From the sequence record OQ174501.1: a stretch of 64,000 nucleotides of DNA; one strand, written 5' to 3'. The position numbers and the translations under genes are program-made. Below the pieces are notes generated by a model. The model was not told the origin of the DNA. It was given only the letters and a program-made list of their open reading frames with translations, and made no database searches. Below are positions 19,009 through 53,214 of the stretch, piece after piece (positions within the stretch are counted from its first letter, which is position 1; every line of letters starts with the position of its first letter). The stretch comes from Escherichia phage REP2.

Positions 19009-20028
19009 ATGAAAACTCGTTCTCAAATTGAAGATATGGTTCGTAATGCCAGCTATACTCGTGATGTTATGACATTTTTGTGCCAAAATAATTTAGACCC
19101 TGATAAAGTTAATCGTGATATTCACTTTAAGTATATGAATAGCAGTGAATGGTTACGTCATTTTAATGAAGCAGGGTATATTACTCAAATGACTGCTCGT
19201 GAGCAGCTCACCGATTTCTGTAAAACTATTGATTATAAAAATCCTCTATTTGTTCAAGGCGTTGGTCAAAGTAAGGTCGATTTATCATCTGGATTTTTCA
19301 ATCCAAATCATTATCGTATTGAATGGAGATTTATTGCTCTATTCCGTAGACAATTAAAGCAAATTTTGTCTACTGCTAGTCGATTAAAAGGTTCTGATAT
19401 TAACTTAAAGAATCTTAAATTTGATGGTTATACTCTTCAGATGGAAGTAAGACCATTAAAAGAAAATAATAGAACTGCACGAATTAGCTTTAAACCTAAT
19501 ACAAAAAATTCTCTTTCAATTTGTGAATGCCTTAAATCGCAGTTGACAGAAGCATTTAAGTATATGGATGTTGTTGCTGCTGTTCAGTCTAAGATTTCAC
19601 AGCATTTCGAACGATTTAAATTAGACACAACAGCGTATGAACTTGATATGATCGTTTCATTTAAATATGAATTTTTGAGAAAAGATGAAGTCCCGCAAGA
19701 GAAAAAGCAGGAAGTGCAAGATAACTTAAATTTATCCAATTACTTATCAAACGATCCTAAATTTTGGATGTATAGTTCAGGTAATAAAGATGCATGGAAA
19801 TTTAATAAAGTGAATTTTCTTCCTATTGAAAATCCGAGTCTTAAACCTGTTGAAAAATGGCATGCAGATGCGATTGAGAAGTCTATCAAGGCAGTAGATG
19901 ATGAACTCGTTAAAGCAACTAATGAAGTGCTAGAAGCTGAAAAGATGTTGGAAAAAGCTCAAGAAAAAGTCAAAAATCTTACGAAGCAACGTTCTAAACT
20001 GAACAATGCACTAAATGCACTGAACTAG
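19009..20028 (+). CDS. Hypothetical protein with C-terminal coiled coil (member 2)
   Basis: 339 aa; C-terminal ~50 aa coiled coil. Confidence 0.55.
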   Translation: MKTRSQIEDMVRNASYTRDVMTFLCQNNLDPDKVNRDIHFKYMNSSEWLRHFNEAGYITQMTAREQLTDFCKTIDYKNPLFVQGVGQSKVDLSSGFFNPNHYRIEWRFIALFRRQLKQILSTASRLKGSDINLKNLKFDGYTLQMEVRPLKENNRTARISFKPNTKNSLSICECLKSQLTEAFKYMDVVAAVQSKISQHFERFKLDTTAYELDMIVSFKYEFLRKDEVPQEKKQEVQDNLNLSNYLSNDPKFWMYSSGNKDAWKFNKVNFLPIENPSLKPVEKWHADAIEKSIKAVDDELVKATNEVLEAEKMLEKAQEKVKNLTKQRSKLNNALNALN

Positions 20029-20060
20029 TTTACATTGCCACAAGGATGTGGTATAATGTT
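20020..20060 (+). promoter_or_regulatory. T4 early promoter
   Basis: GTTTAC 20028-20033, TATAAT 20052-20057. Confidence 0.6.
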
Positions 20061-20085
20061 CTTACTTTCTACTGAGGAGATTATT

Positions 20086-21087
20086 ATGACTCGTAACGAA
20101 TATATCAAATCATTCAATAGCGTTATTGATGATAAAGCTATACCGATGTTTGGTCAAAATATCGTTCTTTCTATTATCAATCAATGGCTCAATAGTGTTG
20201 ATGCAAGTATTGTTTCTTCTACTAAATTTATTCATGAAATTCGTAAAATTTCTAGCCGTGTAGATAAAGATGTTATCAAGAAAACCTTTAAAGAGTCTCG
20301 TCTTCTTTCATATTTGGTTAATCGGGATATTCTTGGTAATTTTGGGAAAGAAATTAAACGAACCAAAGATGTAGTAGGATATAATTGGTTCGGTGATGTT
20401 AATTCTTATCATCTTAATAATAAAGAAGACCCTGAGAATATTTTTACTCGTCGTTGGATTAGTAATTTCAGACTTTTCAAAGGACAGATTCTAAAATCAG
20501 CTTCTAAATTATGTTATGGCGATTATCGTCAAATTCATCCTTTGGCTTCTGATATGATTATCATAAAAGAATATGAACTTGATAAAAATAAAGTATCTAT
20601 TTTTGTGAATTATGGATTTTTTACACCAAACGCTAACCAAAAGAACATTAATAAATTTTTCTCAATTGCTAGCACTATAACTCGTCAGTTAGAGACTGCA
20701 TTACTTTGTATGGAAACAGTAGAAAATATTCATACATATCCTTTTAAGAATATATGCGGATGGGAAGGATATAAAATTGTAATTAGTCTTCGTGAAGTGA
20801 AATGTGCTTATTCACCTACTGATAAAGAAATTTATCAACAAAAATGTGAGGAAATTGTGAATACTCCTAAAGAAGAAACTACCCTTGAGGAACTAATGGA
20901 TAATCTTGATGATTCGCCTGAACCGGCAGAAATTCGTCCAGAAGTTATTGCACTAGAAAAAGCTTATAAAGAAGTTCTAGAAATTTCTAATAAAGCGCAG
21001 AAAGAATATGAGCAGGCTAAAAGGATTTGGGAAGAATCTGTTAATCGTCTTGATCGTTTGGAACAAGCTTTACAGTTAATTAAGTAA
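20086..21087 (+). CDS. Hypothetical protein with C-terminal coiled coil (member 3)
   Basis: ATG after gaggag (ORF track starts at 20035). Confidence 0.55.
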   Translation: MTRNEYIKSFNSVIDDKAIPMFGQNIVLSIINQWLNSVDASIVSSTKFIHEIRKISSRVDKDVIKKTFKESRLLSYLVNRDILGNFGKEIKRTKDVVGYNWFGDVNSYHLNNKEDPENIFTRRWISNFRLFKGQILKSASKLCYGDYRQIHPLASDMIIIKEYELDKNKVSIFVNYGFFTPNANQKNINKFFSIASTITRQLETALLCMETVENIHTYPFKNICGWEGYKIVISLREVKCAYSPTDKEIYQQKCEEIVNTPKEETTLEELMDNLDDSPEPAEIRPEVIALEKAYKEVLEISNKAQKEYEQAKRIWEESVNRLDRLEQALQLIK

Positions 21088-31328: not shown

Positions 31329-32531
31329 ATGAAAGTATGTATTTTTATGGCTCGAGGTCTTGAAGGTTGTGGTGTAACTAAATTTTCTCTTGAGCAACGT
31401 GATTGGTTTATTAAGAATGGTCATGAAGTAACTTTGGTTTATGCTAAAGATAAATCATTTACTCGTAATTGCGCGCATGATTATAAATCATTTTCAATTC
31501 CGGTTTTATTGGCAAAAGAATATGATAAAACACTTAAGCTGGTAAATGATTGTGATATTCTAATTATCAATTCAGTTCCTGCTACTTCGGTTGAAGAAGA
31601 CACTATTAATAACTATAAAAAAATTATTGATAACATTAAACCTTCTGTTCGTGTTGTAGTTTATCAACATGACCATTCTTCTCTTTCTTTGCGCCGAAAT
31701 TTGGGATTAGAAGAAACTGTTCGTCGAGCTGATGTTATTTTTAGCCATTCTGATAATGGTGATTTTAATAAAGTTCTGATGAAAGAATGGTATCCAGAAA
31801 CAGTTTCTCTGTTTGATGATATTGAAGAAGCACCGACCGTATATAACTTTCAGCCTCCGATGGATATTGCGAAGGTTCGATCAACCTACTGGAAAGATGT
31901 TTCTGAAATTAACATGAATATCAACCGTTGGATTGGTCGTACGACTACATGGAAAGGTTTTTATCAGATGTTTGATTTCCATGAAAAACATCTTAAACCT
32001 GCAGGACTAAGTACTATTATGGAAGGTCTGGAACGTTCTCCAGCGTTCATTCCTATTAAAGAAAAAGGAATTCCATACGAGTATTATCGTCTTCATCAAG
32101 TAGACCAAATTAAAATTGCTCCTAATTTGCCAACGCAAATTCTTGACCGTTATGTAAATAGCGAAATGCTTGAACGCATGAGTAAATCCGGATTTGGTTA
32201 TCAGCTGAGTAAGTTGGACAAAAAATATCTACAACGTTCTTTAGAATATACTCATCTCGAGCTTGGTGCATGTGGAACAATTCCGGTATTTTGGAAATCT
32301 ACTGGCGAAAATTTAAAATTCCGTGTTGATAATACTCCTTTGACCTCGCATGATAGCGGTATCATTTGGTTTGATGAAAATGACATGGAATCAACATTTG
32401 AGCGTATTAAAGAACTGTCATCTGACCGAACTCTTTATGACCGTGAACGCGAAAAAGCTTATGAATTTTTGTATCAGCATCAAGATTCAAGCTTCTGCTT
32501 TAAAGAACAGTTTGACATTATTACAAAATAA
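31329..32531 (+). CDS. agt: DNA alpha-glucosyltransferase
   Basis: 400 aa; ICIFMARGLEGCGVTKFSLEQRDWFIKNGHEVTLVYAKDKSF matches T4 alpha-gt as I recall it. Confidence 0.9.
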   Translation: MKVCIFMARGLEGCGVTKFSLEQRDWFIKNGHEVTLVYAKDKSFTRNCAHDYKSFSIPVLLAKEYDKTLKLVNDCDILIINSVPATSVEEDTINNYKKIIDNIKPSVRVVVYQHDHSSLSLRRNLGLEETVRRADVIFSHSDNGDFNKVLMKEWYPETVSLFDDIEEAPTVYNFQPPMDIAKVRSTYWKDVSEINMNINRWIGRTTTWKGFYQMFDFHEKHLKPAGLSTIMEGLERSPAFIPIKEKGIPYEYYRLHQVDQIKIAPNLPTQILDRYVNSEMLERMSKSGFGYQLSKLDKKYLQRSLEYTHLELGACGTIPVFWKSTGENLKFRVDNTPLTSHDSGIIWFDENDMESTFERIKELSSDRTLYDREREKAYEFLYQHQDSSFCFKEQFDIITK

Positions 32532-32570: not shown

Positions 32571-32711
32571 ATGATATTTCTTGGATATGTGATACTTTTT
32601 CTCGCATTTTATCTATTCGCTAGAGCATGTTGGATTGGGTTCTTTAGCACTCCAGATGGATTTATTTCAATAATTTTATTTTGCATTTCAATGACGGTTC
32701 TTGATATATGA
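32571..32711 (+). CDS. Small hydrophobic peptide (46 aa)
   Basis: MIFLGYVILFLAFYLF...; ATGA overlap with the downstream endonuclease gene. Confidence 0.35.
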   Translation: MIFLGYVILFLAFYLFARACWIGFFSTPDGFISIILFCISMTVLDI

Positions 32712-33331
32712 AAAAATATATAACTTATTTAACAATATATAGTGGAGATAAACTTCCTCCTTTTTATATTGGATCTACGTCTTTAGATAGGCATTTAGCT
32801 GGATATCATGGTTCAGTTTTATCTAAAAAGTATAAGAAAATTTATAATAAAGAGCTTTCAGATAATCCTCACTTATTTGATTCATGTATTTTAGCTGAAT
32901 TTGATACGCGTGAAGAAGCTATTAAATGCGAGTTATATTATCAACGATTGCATGATGCAGTTAAAAATCCATTATTCTTTAATATGTCATATGCTGCTCC
33001 AAAAGGTTCATTTGGAAGAGATAATAAAGGACAAAATCATCCATTATATGGTTCTCATAATTGTAAAGGAAATATACATTCACATGATCCATTAACAGGA
33101 AAATCTGCCTTTTTGCCTTATATTCCAGAAGGTTATGTAAAAGGAAGGTCAAATAAATTTAAAGCTTCATCACATAATAAAGGTAAAAAATGGTATAATA
33201 ACGGAGTTAAGCAAATGTTATGTCATGAACCTCCTGGTCCTGAATGGACAAAAGGAAAAATTAAAGAACTGGTTTCAAAAGCAGCTAAATTAGGATGGAA
33301 AAGACACCATGAAAATACTAAACTTGGGTGA
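32708..33331 (+). CDS. GIY-YIG (Seg-like) homing endonuclease
   Basis: N-terminal YITYLTIY...FYIGSTS GIY-YIG-like motifs; NUMOD3-like GQNHPLYGSHN; lies between alpha-gt and 47, the T4 mobB position. Confidence 0.6.
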   Translation: MKKYITYLTIYSGDKLPPFYIGSTSLDRHLAGYHGSVLSKKYKKIYNKELSDNPHLFDSCILAEFDTREEAIKCELYYQRLHDAVKNPLFFNMSYAAPKGSFGRDNKGQNHPLYGSHNCKGNIHSHDPLTGKSAFLPYIPEGYVKGRSNKFKASSHNKGKKWYNNGVKQMLCHEPPGPEWTKGKIKELVSKAAKLGWKRHHENTKLG

Positions 33332-34328: not shown

Positions 34329-34588
34329 CTTTTGATGAATTTAAAAATGTTATGATGAGTCAGCATTTTGAATGCGAAGTAAAAGATGATATTGGGCATA
34401 AAGAAATTATTGAATATTGGTTTGAACCGCTAGAGGTTGAAGATAATTGTATTAAAAAGGTTACAGTCTGCACTGACTGGGCTGTATCTTTTAACTTCAA
34501 CATTTTAGATAATGACACACCTAAATCATTACGAGATATGGCTGTATCTTGTATTAAGGATGCATACTGTGAAGTTTTCGACATTTGA
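34325..34588 (+). CDS. Hypothetical protein (46.2 position)
   Basis: 87 aa. Confidence 0.5.
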   Translation: MTFDEFKNVMMSQHFECEVKDDIGHKEIIEYWFEPLEVEDNCIKKVTVCTDWAVSFNFNILDNDTPKSLRDMAVSCIKDAYCEVFDI

Positions 34589-34775
34589 CATTAATGATGA
34601 ATTCATAGCAAACATTGATTATACCGAAGAAGATTCTAGATATGTTGGAATAATTTATATTACATCAAAAACAGCACAAGGTGTTGTTTGCATGGCTGAA
34701 TTTGATGAATACTTTTTAGATTATGATGATATGATAGAATGGTCTAAAAGATACATTAAAAGGAATCTTTTGTGA
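34569..34775 (+). CDS. Hypothetical protein (46.1 position), start uncertain
   Basis: Putative GTG start after aagga; ORF track starts at 34512. Confidence 0.4.
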   Translation: MKFSTFDINDEFIANIDYTEEDSRYVGIIYITSKTAQGVVCMAEFDEYFLDYDDMIEWSKRYIKRNLL

Positions 34776-36460
34776 AGAATTTTAAACTAAACCGAGTTAG
34801 GTATCAAAATATAATGTCAGTAGGTGGAAATCCTATTGACATTCAATTAGATAAGGTTCAAAAAACTCTTATTACTGGACGAAATGGCGGTGGTAAGTCT
34901 ACTATGTTAGAAGCCATCACATTTGGGCTTTTTGGCAAGCCATTTCGTGATGTAAAGAAAGGTCAATTAATAAACAGCACAAATAAGAAAGAACTTTTAG
35001 TTGAACTGTGGATGGAATATGATGAGAAAAAGTACTATATCAAAAGAGGACAAAAACCAAACGTTTTCGAAATCACCGTTAACGGTACACGTCTTAATGA
35101 ATCTGCCAGCAGTAAAGATTTCCAAGCAGAATTTGAACAGCTTATCGGAATGTCATATGCCAGTTTCAAGCAGATTGTTGTCCTTGGTACAGCAGGGTAT
35201 ACCCCTTTCATGGGTTTGTCGACCCCTGCGCGAAGAAAGCTTGTGGAAGACCTGCTTGAGGTAGGAACATTAGCTGAAATGGATAAGCTTAATAAAGCAC
35301 TAATACGTGAATTAAATTCGCAGAACCAAGTGCTTGATGTTAAAAAAGATAGTATTATCCAACAAATTAAAATATATAATGATAACGTTGAACGCCAGAA
35401 AAAATTAACGGGTGACAACCTTACACGTCTACAAAATATGTATGATGATTTGGCAAAAGAAGCTAGAACGCTAAAATCGGAAATAGAAGAAGCTAACGAA
35501 AGATTAGTTAATATTGTTTTGGATGAAGACCCGACTGATGCATTTAATAAAATCGGTCAAGAAGCAGTTTTAATTAAATCAAAAATTGACTCGTATAATA
35601 AAGTCATTAATATGTATCACGAAGGTGGATTATGTCCAACCTGTTTGTCACAATTAAGTTCCGGTGATAAAGTTGTTTCTAAAATTAAAGATAAAGTTTC
35701 TGAATGTACGCATTCGTTTGAACAGCTTTCAACACACCGTGATAATTTAAAAGTTCTTGTTGATGAATACCGAGATAATATTAAAACTCAGCAGTCGTTG
35801 GCAAATGATATTCGCAATAAAAAGCAATCTCTAATCACGACGGTAGATAAAGCTAAAAAAGTTAAAGCAGCTATAGAAAAAGCATCTTCTGAGTTTATTG
35901 ACCATGCTGATGAAATAGCACTGCTTCAAGAAGAACTTGATAAAATTGTTAAGACAAAAACTAATTTAGTAATGGAAAAATACCACCGAGGAATTTTGAC
36001 TGATATGCTCAAAGATTCTGGTATTAAAGGTGCTATTATTAAAAAGTACATTCCATTATTTAATAAGCAGATTAACCATTATCTTAAAATAATGGAAGCG
36101 GATTATGTGTTTACATTAGATGAAGAATTTAATGAGACAATTAAATCCCGTGGTCGTGAAGATTTTAGTTATGCTTCATTCAGTCAAGGTGAAAAAGCAC
36201 GAATTGATATTGCTCTTTTATTTACTTGGCGTGATATTGCTGAAAAAGTTTCAGGTGTTAAAATAAGTTGTTTATTTCTTGATGAAGTGTATGACGGTGC
36301 ATTTGATGCTGAAGGCATTAAAAATGTAGCTAAAATTTTAGATGGTTTGAAGGATACCAACTTCTTCATAATTTCGCATAAAGACCATGATCCGCAGGAT
36401 TATGGACAGCATATTAAAATGGAAAAAGTTGGTAGATTTAGTGTTGCCACTATTAATTAA
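34772..36460 (+). CDS. 46: Recombination endonuclease subunit gp46 (Rad50/SbcC-like ATPase)
   Basis: 562 aa; Walker A GRNGGGKST, long coiled coil with CPTC zinc hook, C-terminal signature/Walker B LFLDEV; GTG start. Confidence 0.9.
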   Translation: MKNFKLNRVRYQNIMSVGGNPIDIQLDKVQKTLITGRNGGGKSTMLEAITFGLFGKPFRDVKKGQLINSTNKKELLVELWMEYDEKKYYIKRGQKPNVFEITVNGTRLNESASSKDFQAEFEQLIGMSYASFKQIVVLGTAGYTPFMGLSTPARRKLVEDLLEVGTLAEMDKLNKALIRELNSQNQVLDVKKDSIIQQIKIYNDNVERQKKLTGDNLTRLQNMYDDLAKEARTLKSEIEEANERLVNIVLDEDPTDAFNKIGQEAVLIKSKIDSYNKVINMYHEGGLCPTCLSQLSSGDKVVSKIKDKVSECTHSFEQLSTHRDNLKVLVDEYRDNIKTQQSLANDIRNKKQSLITTVDKAKKVKAAIEKASSEFIDHADEIALLQEELDKIVKTKTNLVMEKYHRGILTDMLKDSGIKGAIIKKYIPLFNKQINHYLKIMEADYVFTLDEEFNETIKSRGREDFSYASFSQGEKARIDIALLFTWRDIAEKVSGVKISCLFLDEVYDGAFDAEGIKNVAKILDGLKDTNFFIISHKDHDPQDYGQHIKMEKVGRFSVATIN

Positions 36461-44090: not shown

Positions 44091-44342
44091 ATGGAAACTT
44101 TAGTAGCAGGTTCAATTTTTATGGTTTTAGTTTCAGGTGTGTTGGCTATTATTATATACATGCTTCCATGGTTTATCGCCTTGATGCGTGGGTCAAAATC
44201 GACAGTAGGAATCTTTTTCACATCTTTACTGTTTAACTGGTCAATTATTGGTTGGTTTATTACATTTATTTGGTCAATTGCGGGTGAAACTAAAAAGTCT
44301 GCACAACCAAATCAGGTAATTATCATCAGAGAGAAGGAATGA
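44091..44342 (+). CDS. imm: Immunity (superinfection exclusion) membrane protein Imm
   Basis: 83 aa, two TM helices; between 43 and 42. Confidence 0.85.
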   Translation: METLVAGSIFMVLVSGVLAIIIYMLPWFIALMRGSKSTVGIFFTSLLFNWSIIGWFITFIWSIAGETKKSAQPNQVIIIREKE

Positions 44343-44488
44343 AAAGCAAAATTATAGCAGTGTTGCTTTTAATCTTGATGATTATAATAAGTATATACTA
44401 TAGTGTAACGGTTCCTCTTATGATTCCAACTATTATTTTAGGCTGGGGTTTATTACTGTTACAAGTTAAATATGAATGTATCAATTGA
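44339..44488 (+). CDS. Small membrane protein (49 aa)
   Basis: ATGA overlap with imm; strongly hydrophobic. Confidence 0.4.
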   Translation: MKSKIIAVLLLILMIIISIYYSVTVPLMIPTIILGWGLLLLQVKYECIN

Positions 44489-44495
44489 GGTTTAA

Positions 44496-45236
44496 ATGAT
44501 TAGTGACTCTATGACAGTTGAAGAAATCCGTCTTCATTTGGGGCTTGCATTAAAAGAAAAAGATTTCGTAGTTGATAAAACTGGCGTTAAAACTATTGAA
44601 ATTATTGGCGCATCATTTATAGCAGATGAACCGTTTATTTTTGGCGCTCTTAATGATGAATACATTCAGCGTGAACTTGAATGGTATAAATCTAAGAGCT
44701 TGTTCGTTAAAGATATTCCGGGTGAAACACCGAAGATTTGGCAACAAGTAGCATCTTCTAAAGGTGAAATTAACTCGAATTATGGCTGGGCTATCTGGTC
44801 AGAAGATAACTATGCCCAGTATGATATGTGTTTAGCTGAACTTGGTCAAAATCCTGATTCTCGACGTGGTATCATGATTTATACTCGTCCATCCATGCAA
44901 TTTGACTACAATAAAGATGGTATGTCAGATTTCATGTGTACTAATACAGTACAGTACCTGATTCGTGATAAGAAAGTCAATGCGGTTGTTAGCATGAGAA
45001 GCAATGATTGCTGGGCAGGCTATCGTAATGATTATGCTTGGCAAAAATACGTACTAGATAAATTAGTATCTGATTTGAATGCAGGCGACCCATCGCGGCA
45101 ATATAAAGCAGGTTCTATTATATGGAACGTTGGAAGTCTTCATGTGTACGAAAATCAGTTTTATTTAGTTGACCATTGGTGGAACACCGGTGAGACTCAT
45201 ATTGCTAAAAAGGATTATACTGGAAAATGGAAGTAA
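44496..45236 (+). CDS. 42: dCMP hydroxymethylase gp42
   Basis: 246 aa; thymidylate-synthase-like fold; conserved position. Confidence 0.88.
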   Translation: MISDSMTVEEIRLHLGLALKEKDFVVDKTGVKTIEIIGASFIADEPFIFGALNDEYIQRELEWYKSKSLFVKDIPGETPKIWQQVASSKGEINSNYGWAIWSEDNYAQYDMCLAELGQNPDSRRGIMIYTRPSMQFDYNKDGMSDFMCTNTVQYLIRDKKVNAVVSMRSNDCWAGYRNDYAWQKYVLDKLVSDLNAGDPSRQYKAGSIIWNVGSLHVYENQFYLVDHWWNTGETHIAKKDYTGKWK

Positions 45237-45867
45237 ATGTGCCACATGTTTATAAGTATAAACATCCTAAAACTAAAAAGTGGTATATAGGAAGTCATGA
45301 TGGTCACAACCCGAATTATGATGGTTCGGGTGTAGTTTGGCAACATGCTAAAAAGAAATATGGAATAAAATCCTTTAATAAAGAAATATTATATGAAGGA
45401 CCAATGTTTAGACAGGTTGAAGAAATTATTTTAACTTGTTTAGATGCTGCTAATTGTCCGGATTCATATAATTTAAAGAATGAAGCATGGGGAGGAAGTT
45501 TTCCAGGCAAATTAAATGGAATGTACGGTAAAAACTATCTCCAGAAGAAAGATATAAGTGCGGAAATGCCTTTCGTGGAATCAAGCGTCCTGATCATTCT
45601 AAAAGAATGAAAGGCGAAGGTAATCCAATGTATGGTAAAAATGAGCAGGCATATGGAATTATAAATCGAGCCAAGGAAAATTCTGGTAAAACTTATGAAG
45701 AAATTTTTGGCGTAGAAAAAGCTAAAATAATTAAAGAAACGATGTCTAAAAATCGTAAAGGAAAACCTCATAATTTGATAGAAAAAATATGTCCGCATTG
45801 CGGACTAAAAGGACGTGGGCCAAATATGACAAGATACCATTTTGACAAATGTAAGGCACTTAAATGA
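45227..45867 (+). pseudogene. GIY-YIG (Seg-like) homing endonuclease gene split by a frameshift
   Basis: ORF 45227-45610 carries VYKYKHPKTKKWYIGSHDG (GIY-YIG) and NUMOD-like GKLNGMYGKN; the second frame, open from 45559 to 45867, carries GNAFRGIKRPDHSKRMKGEGNPMYGK repeats and the zinc finger CPHCGLKGRGPNMTRYHFDKC. Confidence 0.6.
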
Positions 45868-46706
45868 TTCAATTCGTAATTCCAAGTTATCAGCGTGTAG
45901 GGGCAGTTTCTGCCCTTAATATGTTTCCGACTGATTATGAACCCCATATTGTAGTGCGTGAACACGAAGAAAAAGCTTATTATGATGCTTATGGGTCTAG
46001 AGCTAAAATTATAACTATTCCTGATGATGTAAACGGAATTGCCGGTACTCGTAAAGCAATTACTGATATGTATGCAGGCCAACGAATCTGGATGATTGAC
46101 GATGATACTACTATTCGTATGAGTTCAATGCGAAAAAGAGATGACCGTCGTTGCGTGGATAAAGTCAATCAATTGACTCATGAACAGTTCTATGAATTGA
46201 TTCAATACGTCGAAGATGCCATGGATTGCGGGTATTATCACGGTCATGCTCGCCTACCAATTTTTAAAATTACTTCATCTTGGGGTAATTATCGTGAAAA
46301 TTCATATGGATTCACGAATACATGGTATGACCTTGGAAAACTTACGACAGAACAAATTGGGTATGGAAAAATTGATTTGTGCGAAGATATGTATGCATTT
46401 CTTAATTTAATTAATCAAGGTTATCCGCATTTGGCCTTGTTCAAATATCTGGTTGTATCTGGAAAAGCGCAAGCTCCTGGTGGGTGTAGTTCAATTCGTA
46501 GTAATTCTAAACATAATAGAGCGCTTGAGCAAATCAATAGAGAGTTTCCAGAGCAAGCTCGTTGGAAAACTTCTAATATCGAAAAACGAAAATCGTTGGG
46601 TGAAGAAGACGAGCCATTAAAGGTTCTTCGCATGTGTGTTTCGCGTAAAGAAAAATCAGAAGCATTTCATAAGTTTAATGCTATTCATCCAATAGCAGTT
46701 GATTAA
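45864..46706 (+). CDS. GT-A-type glycosyltransferase (possible T2/T6-type beta-alpha glucosyltransferase)
   Basis: 280 aa; IPSYQR...DDD motif; occupies the T4 beta-gt position between 42 and uvsX but does not match T4 beta-gt. Confidence 0.55.
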   Translation: MIQFVIPSYQRVGAVSALNMFPTDYEPHIVVREHEEKAYYDAYGSRAKIITIPDDVNGIAGTRKAITDMYAGQRIWMIDDDTTIRMSSMRKRDDRRCVDKVNQLTHEQFYELIQYVEDAMDCGYYHGHARLPIFKITSSWGNYRENSYGFTNTWYDLGKLTTEQIGYGKIDLCEDMYAFLNLINQGYPHLALFKYLVVSGKAQAPGGCSSIRSNSKHNRALEQINREFPEQARWKTSNIEKRKSLGEEDEPLKVLRMCVSRKEKSEAFHKFNAIHPIAVD

Positions 46707-46783: not shown

Positions 46784-47965
46784 ATGTCTATTGCAGATTT
46801 AAAATCCCGTTTGATTAAAGCTTCCACTTCTAAAATGACTGCTGAACTGACTACATCTAAATTCTTTAATGAAAAGGATGTAATTCGTACAAAAATTCCA
46901 ATGCTTAATATTGCTATTTCTGGTGCAATTGATGGCGGTATGCAGTCTGGTTTAACTATTTTCGCAGGGCCTTCTAAACACTTTAAATCAAATATGTCTT
47001 TGACTATGGTTGCGGCATATTTGAACAAATATCCTGACGCGGTTTGTCTATTCTATGATAGCGAATTTGGTATTACTCCAGCTTATTTGCGATCCATGGG
47101 AGTTGACCCGGAACGTGTAATTCATACGCCAATTCAGTCAGTTGAACAACTGAAAATTGATATGGTGAACCAGCTTGAAGCTATTGAGCGTGGTGAAAAG
47201 GTTATTGTATTCATCGACTCAATCGGTAATATGGCTTCTAAGAAAGAAACGGAAGATGCCTTGAATGAAAAATCTGTGGCAGATATGACTCGTGCTAAAT
47301 CACTGAAGTCATTATTCCGTATTGTTACTCCTTACTTTAGCATTAAAAATATTCCATGTGTTGCGGTTAACCATACAATTGAAACAATTGAAATGTTTAG
47401 TAAAACCGTGATGACAGGTGGTACAGGCGTAATGTATTCGGCTGATACTGTATTCATTATCGGTAAGCGTCAGATTAAAGATGGTTCTGATCTTCAGGGG
47501 TATCAATTTGTTCTAAATGTAGAAAAATCTCGTACCGTTAAAGAAAAAAGTAAATTCTTTATTGATGTTAAATTTGACGGTGGTATCGATCCTTATTCTG
47601 GATTGTTAGATATGGCTCTAGAATTAGGATTTGTAGTAAAACCTAAGAATGGTTGGTATGCTCGTGAATTTCTTGACGAAGAAACCGGCGAGATGATTCG
47701 CGAAGAAAAATCTTGGCGTGCAAAAGATACCAACTGCACTACATTCTGGGGTCCTTTATTTAAGCATCAACCATTCCGAGATGCTATTAAACGCGCTTAT
47801 CAGTTAGGTGCTATTGATAGTAATGAAATTGTTGAAGCTGAAGTTGATGAATTGATTAACTCAAAGGTTGAAAAATTTAAATCTCCAGAAAGTAAAAGTA
47901 AACCAGCAGCTGATTTAGAAACTGACCTCGAGCAGTTAAGTGATATGGAAGAATTTAATGAATAA
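46784..47965 (+). CDS. uvsX: Recombinase UvsX (RecA-like)
   Basis: 393 aa; Walker A GPSKHFKS; RecA-like core. Confidence 0.93.
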   Translation: MSIADLKSRLIKASTSKMTAELTTSKFFNEKDVIRTKIPMLNIAISGAIDGGMQSGLTIFAGPSKHFKSNMSLTMVAAYLNKYPDAVCLFYDSEFGITPAYLRSMGVDPERVIHTPIQSVEQLKIDMVNQLEAIERGEKVIVFIDSIGNMASKKETEDALNEKSVADMTRAKSLKSLFRIVTPYFSIKNIPCVAVNHTIETIEMFSKTVMTGGTGVMYSADTVFIIGKRQIKDGSDLQGYQFVLNVEKSRTVKEKSKFFIDVKFDGGIDPYSGLLDMALELGFVVKPKNGWYAREFLDEETGEMIREEKSWRAKDTNCTTFWGPLFKHQPFRDAIKRAYQLGAIDSNEIVEAEVDELINSKVEKFKSPESKSKPAADLETDLEQLSDMEEFNE

Positions 47966-52427: not shown

Positions 52428-52624
52428 ATTAACCCAACTAAAGCAAATGCTAAATCTACAAATGTATCAAGAGTAACTACTGGAATATTAACACCATGCG
52501 CAATTGCAATTGGTGATAAAATAAAGTTCCAGAGTAAAATTCCTACCATAGCAGAAATAGTAAAAGCTATACGTTTCTTATTACCTTTGATGGCATTAAC
52601 AAGTGCCATTAATTTTTGTACCAT
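52424..52624 (-). CDS. Small membrane protein (66 aa)
   Basis: Minus-strand ORF with AGGAGG 5 nt upstream of its ATG; hydrophobic helices; convergent with gene 61. Confidence 0.5.
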   Translation of the reverse strand: MVQKLMALVNAIKGNKKRIAFTISAMVGILLWNFILSPIAIAHGVNIPVVTLDTFVDLAFALVGLI

Positions 52625-52695: not shown

Positions 52696-53214
52696 ATGGC
52701 TTACTTTAACGAATGTAGTCAACTGATTGAAGGCGCTGATAAAGCTCAAAATGAATATTGGGATATTCTCGGTGATGAAAAAGACCCGCTACAGGTTATG
52801 CTTGATATGCAGAAATCTTTACAGATTCGTTTAGCTAAAGATAAACCTGAATATAATCGTCATCCTGATGATTTGGCTACTGCCGGTGAAGTTGTTGATT
52901 GGTTGCGTAATCAGAAAGATTATATTGATGATGAATTCCGTGAACTTCTGACTTCTCTTGGTGGTATGAGTAATGGTGAAAAAGACGCATCTGCTGTATG
53001 GAAACCTTGGAAGTCGCAGCATGGTGAACGTCGTGAAACTCTGATTACTGATTTGTCTCCGCAAGACCAACTGGAAATTAAGTTTGAAATGATTGATATT
53101 CTCCATTTCGTTCTGAACATGTTCCAAGGTCTTGGTCTTACAGCAGAAGAAATCTTTAAACTTTATTACCTGAAAAATGCTGAAAATTTCGCACGTCAAG
53201 ACCGAGGTTATTAA
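52696..53214 (+). CDS. 56: dCTPase/dCDPase gp56
   Basis: 172 aa from ATG 52696; MAYFNECSQLIEGADKAQNEYWDILGDEKDPLQVMLD matches T4 gp56 as I recall it. Confidence 0.88.
   Translation: MAYFNECSQLIEGADKAQNEYWDILGDEKDPLQVMLDMQKSLQIRLAKDKPEYNRHPDDLATAGEVVDWLRNQKDYIDDEFRELLTSLGGMSNGEKDASAVWKPWKSQHGERRETLITDLSPQDQLEIKFEMIDILHFVLNMFQGLGLTAEEIFKLYYLKNAENFARQDRGY

Follow-up and report, generated by a model that had tools for sequence, protein, structure and literature searches.

We identified the gene at 45864..46706 (+ strand) in a 64,000-nucleotide stretch of Escherichia phage REP2 (OQ174501.1; hereafter the window) as very probably the ortholog of the beta-alpha-glucosyltransferase of phages T2 and T6 (ba-gt, also called ggt or beta-glucosyl-HMC-alpha-glucosyltransferase; Pfam TAGT). 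The ORF starts with ATG, comprises 280 codons and opens with MIQFVIPSYQRVGAV. The encoded protein carries IPSYQR at residues 6-11 and DDD at residues 79-81, the latter within IWMIDDDTTI (75-84), so that the 280-aa ORF and both motifs reported in an earlier reading of the letters alone (the sequence-only reading) were found as described. That reading had proposed alignment with the T2/T6 enzyme as a check, and the outcome was positive: the syntenic protein of T2 (AP018813), also 280 aa long, was identical to ba-gt at 276/280 residues, as was that of T6 (AP018814) with a one-residue gap, giving 98.6% identity to each. PHROG 842, "beta-glucosyl-HMC-alpha-glucosyltransferase", matched residues 1-275 with an E value of 9e-89, while PF20691 (TAGT, TET-associated glycosyltransferase) was the sole Pfam match, scoring 40 bits over profile positions 2-205 of 205 (gathering threshold, 27.5 bits). 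NCBIfam returned no model for ba-gt or for the alpha-glucosyltransferase gene (alpha-gt) of the window. The window aligned without gaps, at 99.93% identity and with 45 mismatches, to REP3 (OQ174502.1), a Tequatrovirus from river water in the USA, whose CDS named beta-glucosyl-HMC-alpha-glucosyltransferase was 100% identical to the ba-gt gene. Full-length megablast matches at 90% nucleotide identity or more were obtained in 474 phage records, many of which use the same gene name; the organisms are named as phages of Escherichia, Shigella, Yersinia, Salmonella and Citrobacter.

The gene order in the window is imm, 42, a seg-like insert, ba-gt, uvsX, 40 and 41, which agrees with that of T2 and T6. 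Upstream lies imm (44091-44342, +, PF14373), and downstream uvsX (46784-47965, PF21134 and RecA) is followed by genes 40 and 41. The site between genes 42 and uvsX, as first proposed, was thus right as to its flanks, which were confirmed by Pfam, but ba-gt does not adjoin gene 42 because the seg-like insert intervenes. We also observed a 49-aa hydrophobic ORF between imm and gene 42 (44339-44488, +), which is listed as a hypothetical protein (0045a) in phage ACG-C40 and is unannotated in REP3.

For analysis of conserved residues, a two-round homologue search yielded 51 relatives of ba-gt, nearly all with PF20691, and an alignment of 49 TAGT sequences including ba-gt was built, reaching down to about 13% identity. 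R11 (the Arg of IPSYxR), R63, D79, D80 and D81 were invariant in all 49 members and are all kept in ba-gt; I6, P7, R32, Y39, T62 and R212 were conserved in at least 90% of the alignment. The predicted fold of the protein is GT-A, a single Rossmann-like alpha/beta domain with the DXD motif after the central beta strand, and its structural neighbours include RmlT, hyaluronan synthases, TarP, TarS and SpsA. This is consistent with a published AF3 model of the T6 TAGT protein as a GT-A enzyme sister to GT2 (PMC13216743). A PDB sequence search with ba-gt gave no solved relative, only matches to unrelated proteins at E>1, and we found no published in vitro kinetics or solved structure for the TAGT family. 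The donor would be UDP-glucose, the DXD-type DDD motif would bind a divalent metal, and the mechanism is presumably inverting, since the closest structural neighbours include GT2-like GT-A enzymes that invert.

The partners of such an enzyme were also present. An intact a-gt gene for DNA alpha-glucosyltransferase lies at 31329..32531 (+), where the sequence-only reading had placed it, and its 400-aa product was confirmed by PF11440 (E 4e-237), by 365/400 (91%) identity to T4 alpha-gt and by the REP3 annotation "alpha-glucosyltransferase". Gene 42, encoding dCMP hydroxymethylase (44496-45236, +, 246 aa; PF00303, Thymidylat_synt, E 1.4e-14), is intact, syntenic with gene 42 of T4, T2 and T6, and annotated as dCMP hydroxymethylase in ACG-C40. 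A presumed gene 56 (dCTPase/dUTPase) was assigned at 52696..53214 (+) by synteny and record annotation; these coordinates follow the REP3 CDS, and the mechanical ORF list extends it to an upstream GTG at 52603. The ORF is intact and, through the gap-free alignment, equals REP3 99641-100159, "nucleoside triphosphate pyrophosphohydrolase"; T2 has a 519-bp CDS named "dCTP pyrophosphatase" in the same neighbourhood, matched by size and position only. With these three ORFs intact, REP2 has the genes for hmC DNA, alpha-glucosylation and extension of the sugar. In the proposed pathway, gene 42 would supply hm-dCMP, the presumed gene 56 product would keep unmodified dCTP out of phage DNA, and alpha-gt would make alpha-glucosyl-hmC, the acceptor for ba-gt. 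By analogy with T6 and related phages, ba-gt would then act on duplex DNA and attach a further glucose to alpha-glucosyl-5hmC through a beta-1,6 bond, yielding gentiobiosyl-5hmC. The T2/T6-type interpretation of the sequence-only reading was borne out by the near-identity to both proteins at the syntenic position, the PHROG 842 match, the intact alpha-gt and the lack of beta-gt.

Two homopolymers were noted in alpha-gt, A7 at 31617-31623 and A6 at 32220-32225. These are its only runs of 6 nt or longer; the seg-like gene contains one such run and ba-gt none. A preprint describes, for T2 agt, a homopolymer contingency locus at which reversible frameshifting turns glucosylation off and on (bioRxiv 10.1101/2025.10.21.683753). 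By analogy, the alpha-gt runs could act as a contingency locus here, which would also switch off the acceptor of ba-gt.

Published work describes the DNA of related phages. T2 and T6 are without beta-gt, and their ba-gt puts a beta-1,6 glucose on alpha-glucosyl-hmC; T2 DNA contains about 5% gentiobiosyl-hmC and T6 DNA about 72%, and bare hmC accounts for about 25% in each phage (PMC11078745; bioRxiv 10.64898/2026.02.25.707755). In T2, alpha-glucosyl-hmC makes up about 70% (PMC11078745). Deletion of ba-gt from T6 abolished gentiobiosyl-hmC, left about 75% alpha-glucosyl-hmC, and allowed Brig1 to degrade the DNA and the deglucosylase BapA to use it as substrate (PMC11078745; bioRxiv 10.64898/2026.02.25.707755). 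As reported for T6 and related phages, gentiobiosyl-hmC shields DNA in vitro from the alpha-glucosyl-hmC glycosylase Brig1 and from BapA, and it stays a target of GmrSD-type restriction enzymes. Environmental (Durham) Tequatroviruses with alpha-gt and a TAGT gene at the T4 beta-gt position contained hmC, alpha-glucosyl-hmC and alpha-gentiobiosyl-hmC by LC-MS, either at about 1:2:2 or as about 1/3 hmC and 2/3 gentiobiosyl-hmC, with no beta-glucosyl-hmC (PMC13390438). In REP2, the virion DNA would accordingly be expected to hold hmC, alpha-glucosyl-hmC and gentiobiosyl-hmC and to be free of beta-glucosyl-hmC.

With every invariant residue of ba-gt retained, the gentiobiosyl share of REP2 DNA is probably substantial. 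The proportion of diglucosylated hmC is nevertheless not confidently predictable from sequence, nor can its extent be read from the gene being there, as the share is about 5% in T2 and about 72% in T6, whose enzymes are a handful of residues apart. The laboratory alleles depart from the consensus at or beside invariant positions. R11H was found in 8/8 records with the T2 allele (seven of T2, one of SV76), whereas REP2 ba-gt keeps R11. The T6 record AP018814/NC_054907 shows an in-frame loss of one Asp that turns DDD into DD, together with D54G, while REP2 ba-gt has the full DDD. Another T6 record, MH550421, keeps DDD but has a CAG-to-TAG amber at codon 10, beside the invariant R11, and REP2 ba-gt has no such amber. 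On whether the third Asp is dispensable, the T6 records therefore disagree (DD in AP018814; DDD plus amber in MH550421). Since REP2 ba-gt keeps every invariant residue, whereas each sequenced laboratory reference deviates at one or right beside one, the phage may make predominantly gentiobiosyl-hmC. We tentatively raise the possibility, which we hold to be rather doubtful, that REP2 does so like most wild Tequatroviruses and that the gap between T2 and T6 reflects a single hypomorphic R11H substitution and not regulation; R11H as the cause of low gentiobiosylation in T2 is speculation.

Other readings of the gene were weighed against this assignment. Its position, the slot of beta-gt in T4, is the only point in favour of assigning it to the T4 beta-gt family (GT-B, PF09198) as a divergent form that had escaped recognition. 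The best BLASTP segment between T4 beta-gt and ba-gt covered 10 residues at E 0.28, in line with the original remark that the two do not resemble each other, and a significant alignment was looked for in vain. The Pfam scan gave TAGT only, and the predicted GT-A fold, with its single Rossmann-like domain and DXD motif, differs from a two-domain GT-B enzyme. A diverged T4 beta-gt was refuted on these three grounds, and we give it practically no chance. A beta-gt hidden elsewhere was rejected as well: a tblastn search with the T4 beta-gt protein gave no match at E<=10 in the 64-kb window and only chance matches (E>=3.6) in the whole reassembled REP3 genome. It is also very improbable that ba-gt differs in specificity from the T2/T6 enzymes, using another sugar donor or glycosylating hmC directly in place of beta-gt. 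Phage genomes do combine TAGT homologues with alpha-gt or with beta-gt, or have them alone, so specificity varies in the family (PMC13216743). However, the 98.6% identity with unchanged invariant positions, the T6 deletion genetics that tie this orthologous group to second-glucose activity (PMC11078745) and the lack of beta-glucosyl-hmC by LC-MS in related phages (PMC13390438) all argue against it.

A T2/T6 ortholog that is weakly active or poorly expressed deserves more weight, although we consider it unlikely; REP2 DNA would then be essentially alpha-monoglucosylated, as in T2. This reading draws on T2 itself, which has an intact 280-aa ortholog and makes only about 5% gentiobiosyl-hmC (PMC11078745), on the position of ba-gt behind a frameshifted seg gene, where the stop/start overlap could change translational coupling, and on the lack of an above-chance sigma-70-like promoter near the gene. 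Against it, ba-gt keeps the full DDD and R11, which is His in T2 alone, the same overlapping stop/start junction exists in phages whose seg insert is intact, and the measured environmental Tequatroviruses with alpha-gt and TAGT contain 40% to two-thirds gentiobiosyl-hmC (PMC13390438). The scan for sigma-70 promoters and terminators around ba-gt gave counts at chance level and was uninformative on expression; as their stop and start codons overlap, gene 42, the seg insert and ba-gt presumably share a transcript.

The insert between gene 42 and ba-gt (630 bp; gene at 45227-45867, +) is a frameshifted seg-like homing-endonuclease gene of the GIY-YIG type. It matched PHROG 314 and 655 (homing endonuclease) and showed 42% identity to T4 SegA over 81 aa. 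Relative to ACG-C40, where the gene is intact, encodes 213 aa and is annotated "similar to T4 segC", a 1-bp deletion (A6 to A5, at about 45530) breaks the frame and leaves two ORFs, of 127 and 86 aa, the second of which overlaps the ba-gt start codon (ATGA). REP3 lacks the same A. The insert was detected in 77 phage records, and among the matches listed all but REP3 align over 628 versus 627 bases. Decay of the homing endonuclease to a pseudogene, phase variation at the tract or a sequencing error in the homopolymer could each account for the frameshift; the seg-like gene adjoins ba-gt and is no functional part of the glucosylation pathway. Directly downstream of alpha-gt we observed a further homing-endonuclease ORF of 207 aa (32708-33331, +; PHROG 10820, "HNH endonuclease", and 314, with a weak Pfam GIY-YIG match), so that both glucosyltransferase genes are flanked by homing-endonuclease genes. 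In T4 the small gene 47.1 takes this place, and mobB lies on the other side of a-gt. All 45 mismatches between the window and REP3 fall in two patches, 19737-20646 and 34465-34888, and the other ~62.7 kb are identical, which looks like mosaic recombination between sibling T-even phages; the window thus derives from a close relative of REP3 and not from that record.

The combination of alpha-gt and ba-gt is the majority, usual state in T4-like coliphages, because 474 records carry ba-gt while the T4 pair of alpha-gt and beta-gt was reported in only 6/753 GT-encoding phages, alpha-gt or beta-gt with TAGT being the norm (PMC13216743). The interpretation first made from the sequence is thus correct but ordinary. 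Knowledge of the gene, of its product and of where it lies dates from the early 1990s, genetic and LC-MS studies returned to them in 2024-2026, and no new biology is involved. The glucosyltransferase pair still matters, as it determines the chemical state of all cytosines of the phage genome and thereby which host defences can act: McrBC targets bare hmC, Brig1 and BapA target alpha-glucosyl-hmC, GmrSD/BrxU/TgvAB target glucosylated forms and Brig3 targets the unglucosylated fraction. Restriction enzymes and CRISPR nucleases are influenced by this chemistry too. For host-range and therapy work, the practical prediction from these genes is that REP2 DNA would present alpha-glucosyl- and gentiobiosyl-hmC with some bare hmC and no beta-glucosyl-hmC.

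In T2 and T6, ba-gt likewise lies between gene 42 and uvsX and is accompanied by alpha-gt and gene 42 without beta-gt; there gene 42 and ba-gt abut, whereas in the REP2 window the frameshifted seg-like gene separates them. T4 beta-gt occupies the equivalent genomic slot, and the two enzymes alike glucosylate phage hmC-DNA, with UDP-glucose known as the donor of beta-gt and presumed for ba-gt. T4 beta-gt (GT-B, PF09198) is nevertheless unrelated to ba-gt in sequence and fold, and converts bare hmC into beta-glucosyl-hmC, while the acceptor of ba-gt is instead alpha-glucosyl-hmC. The GT2-like inverting GT-A enzymes BcsA, TarP, TarS, SpsA and RmlT share only 8-16% sequence identity with ba-gt and act on lipid, polysaccharide or teichoic acid, in contrast to a sugar on a base in duplex DNA. 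Within PF20691, many TAGT members have a link to TET/JBP-type oxygenases or are found in the absence of alpha-gt or beta-gt, with no substrate assigned (PMC13216743), whereas REP2 ba-gt belongs to the T-even subgroup, the product of which is genetically defined.
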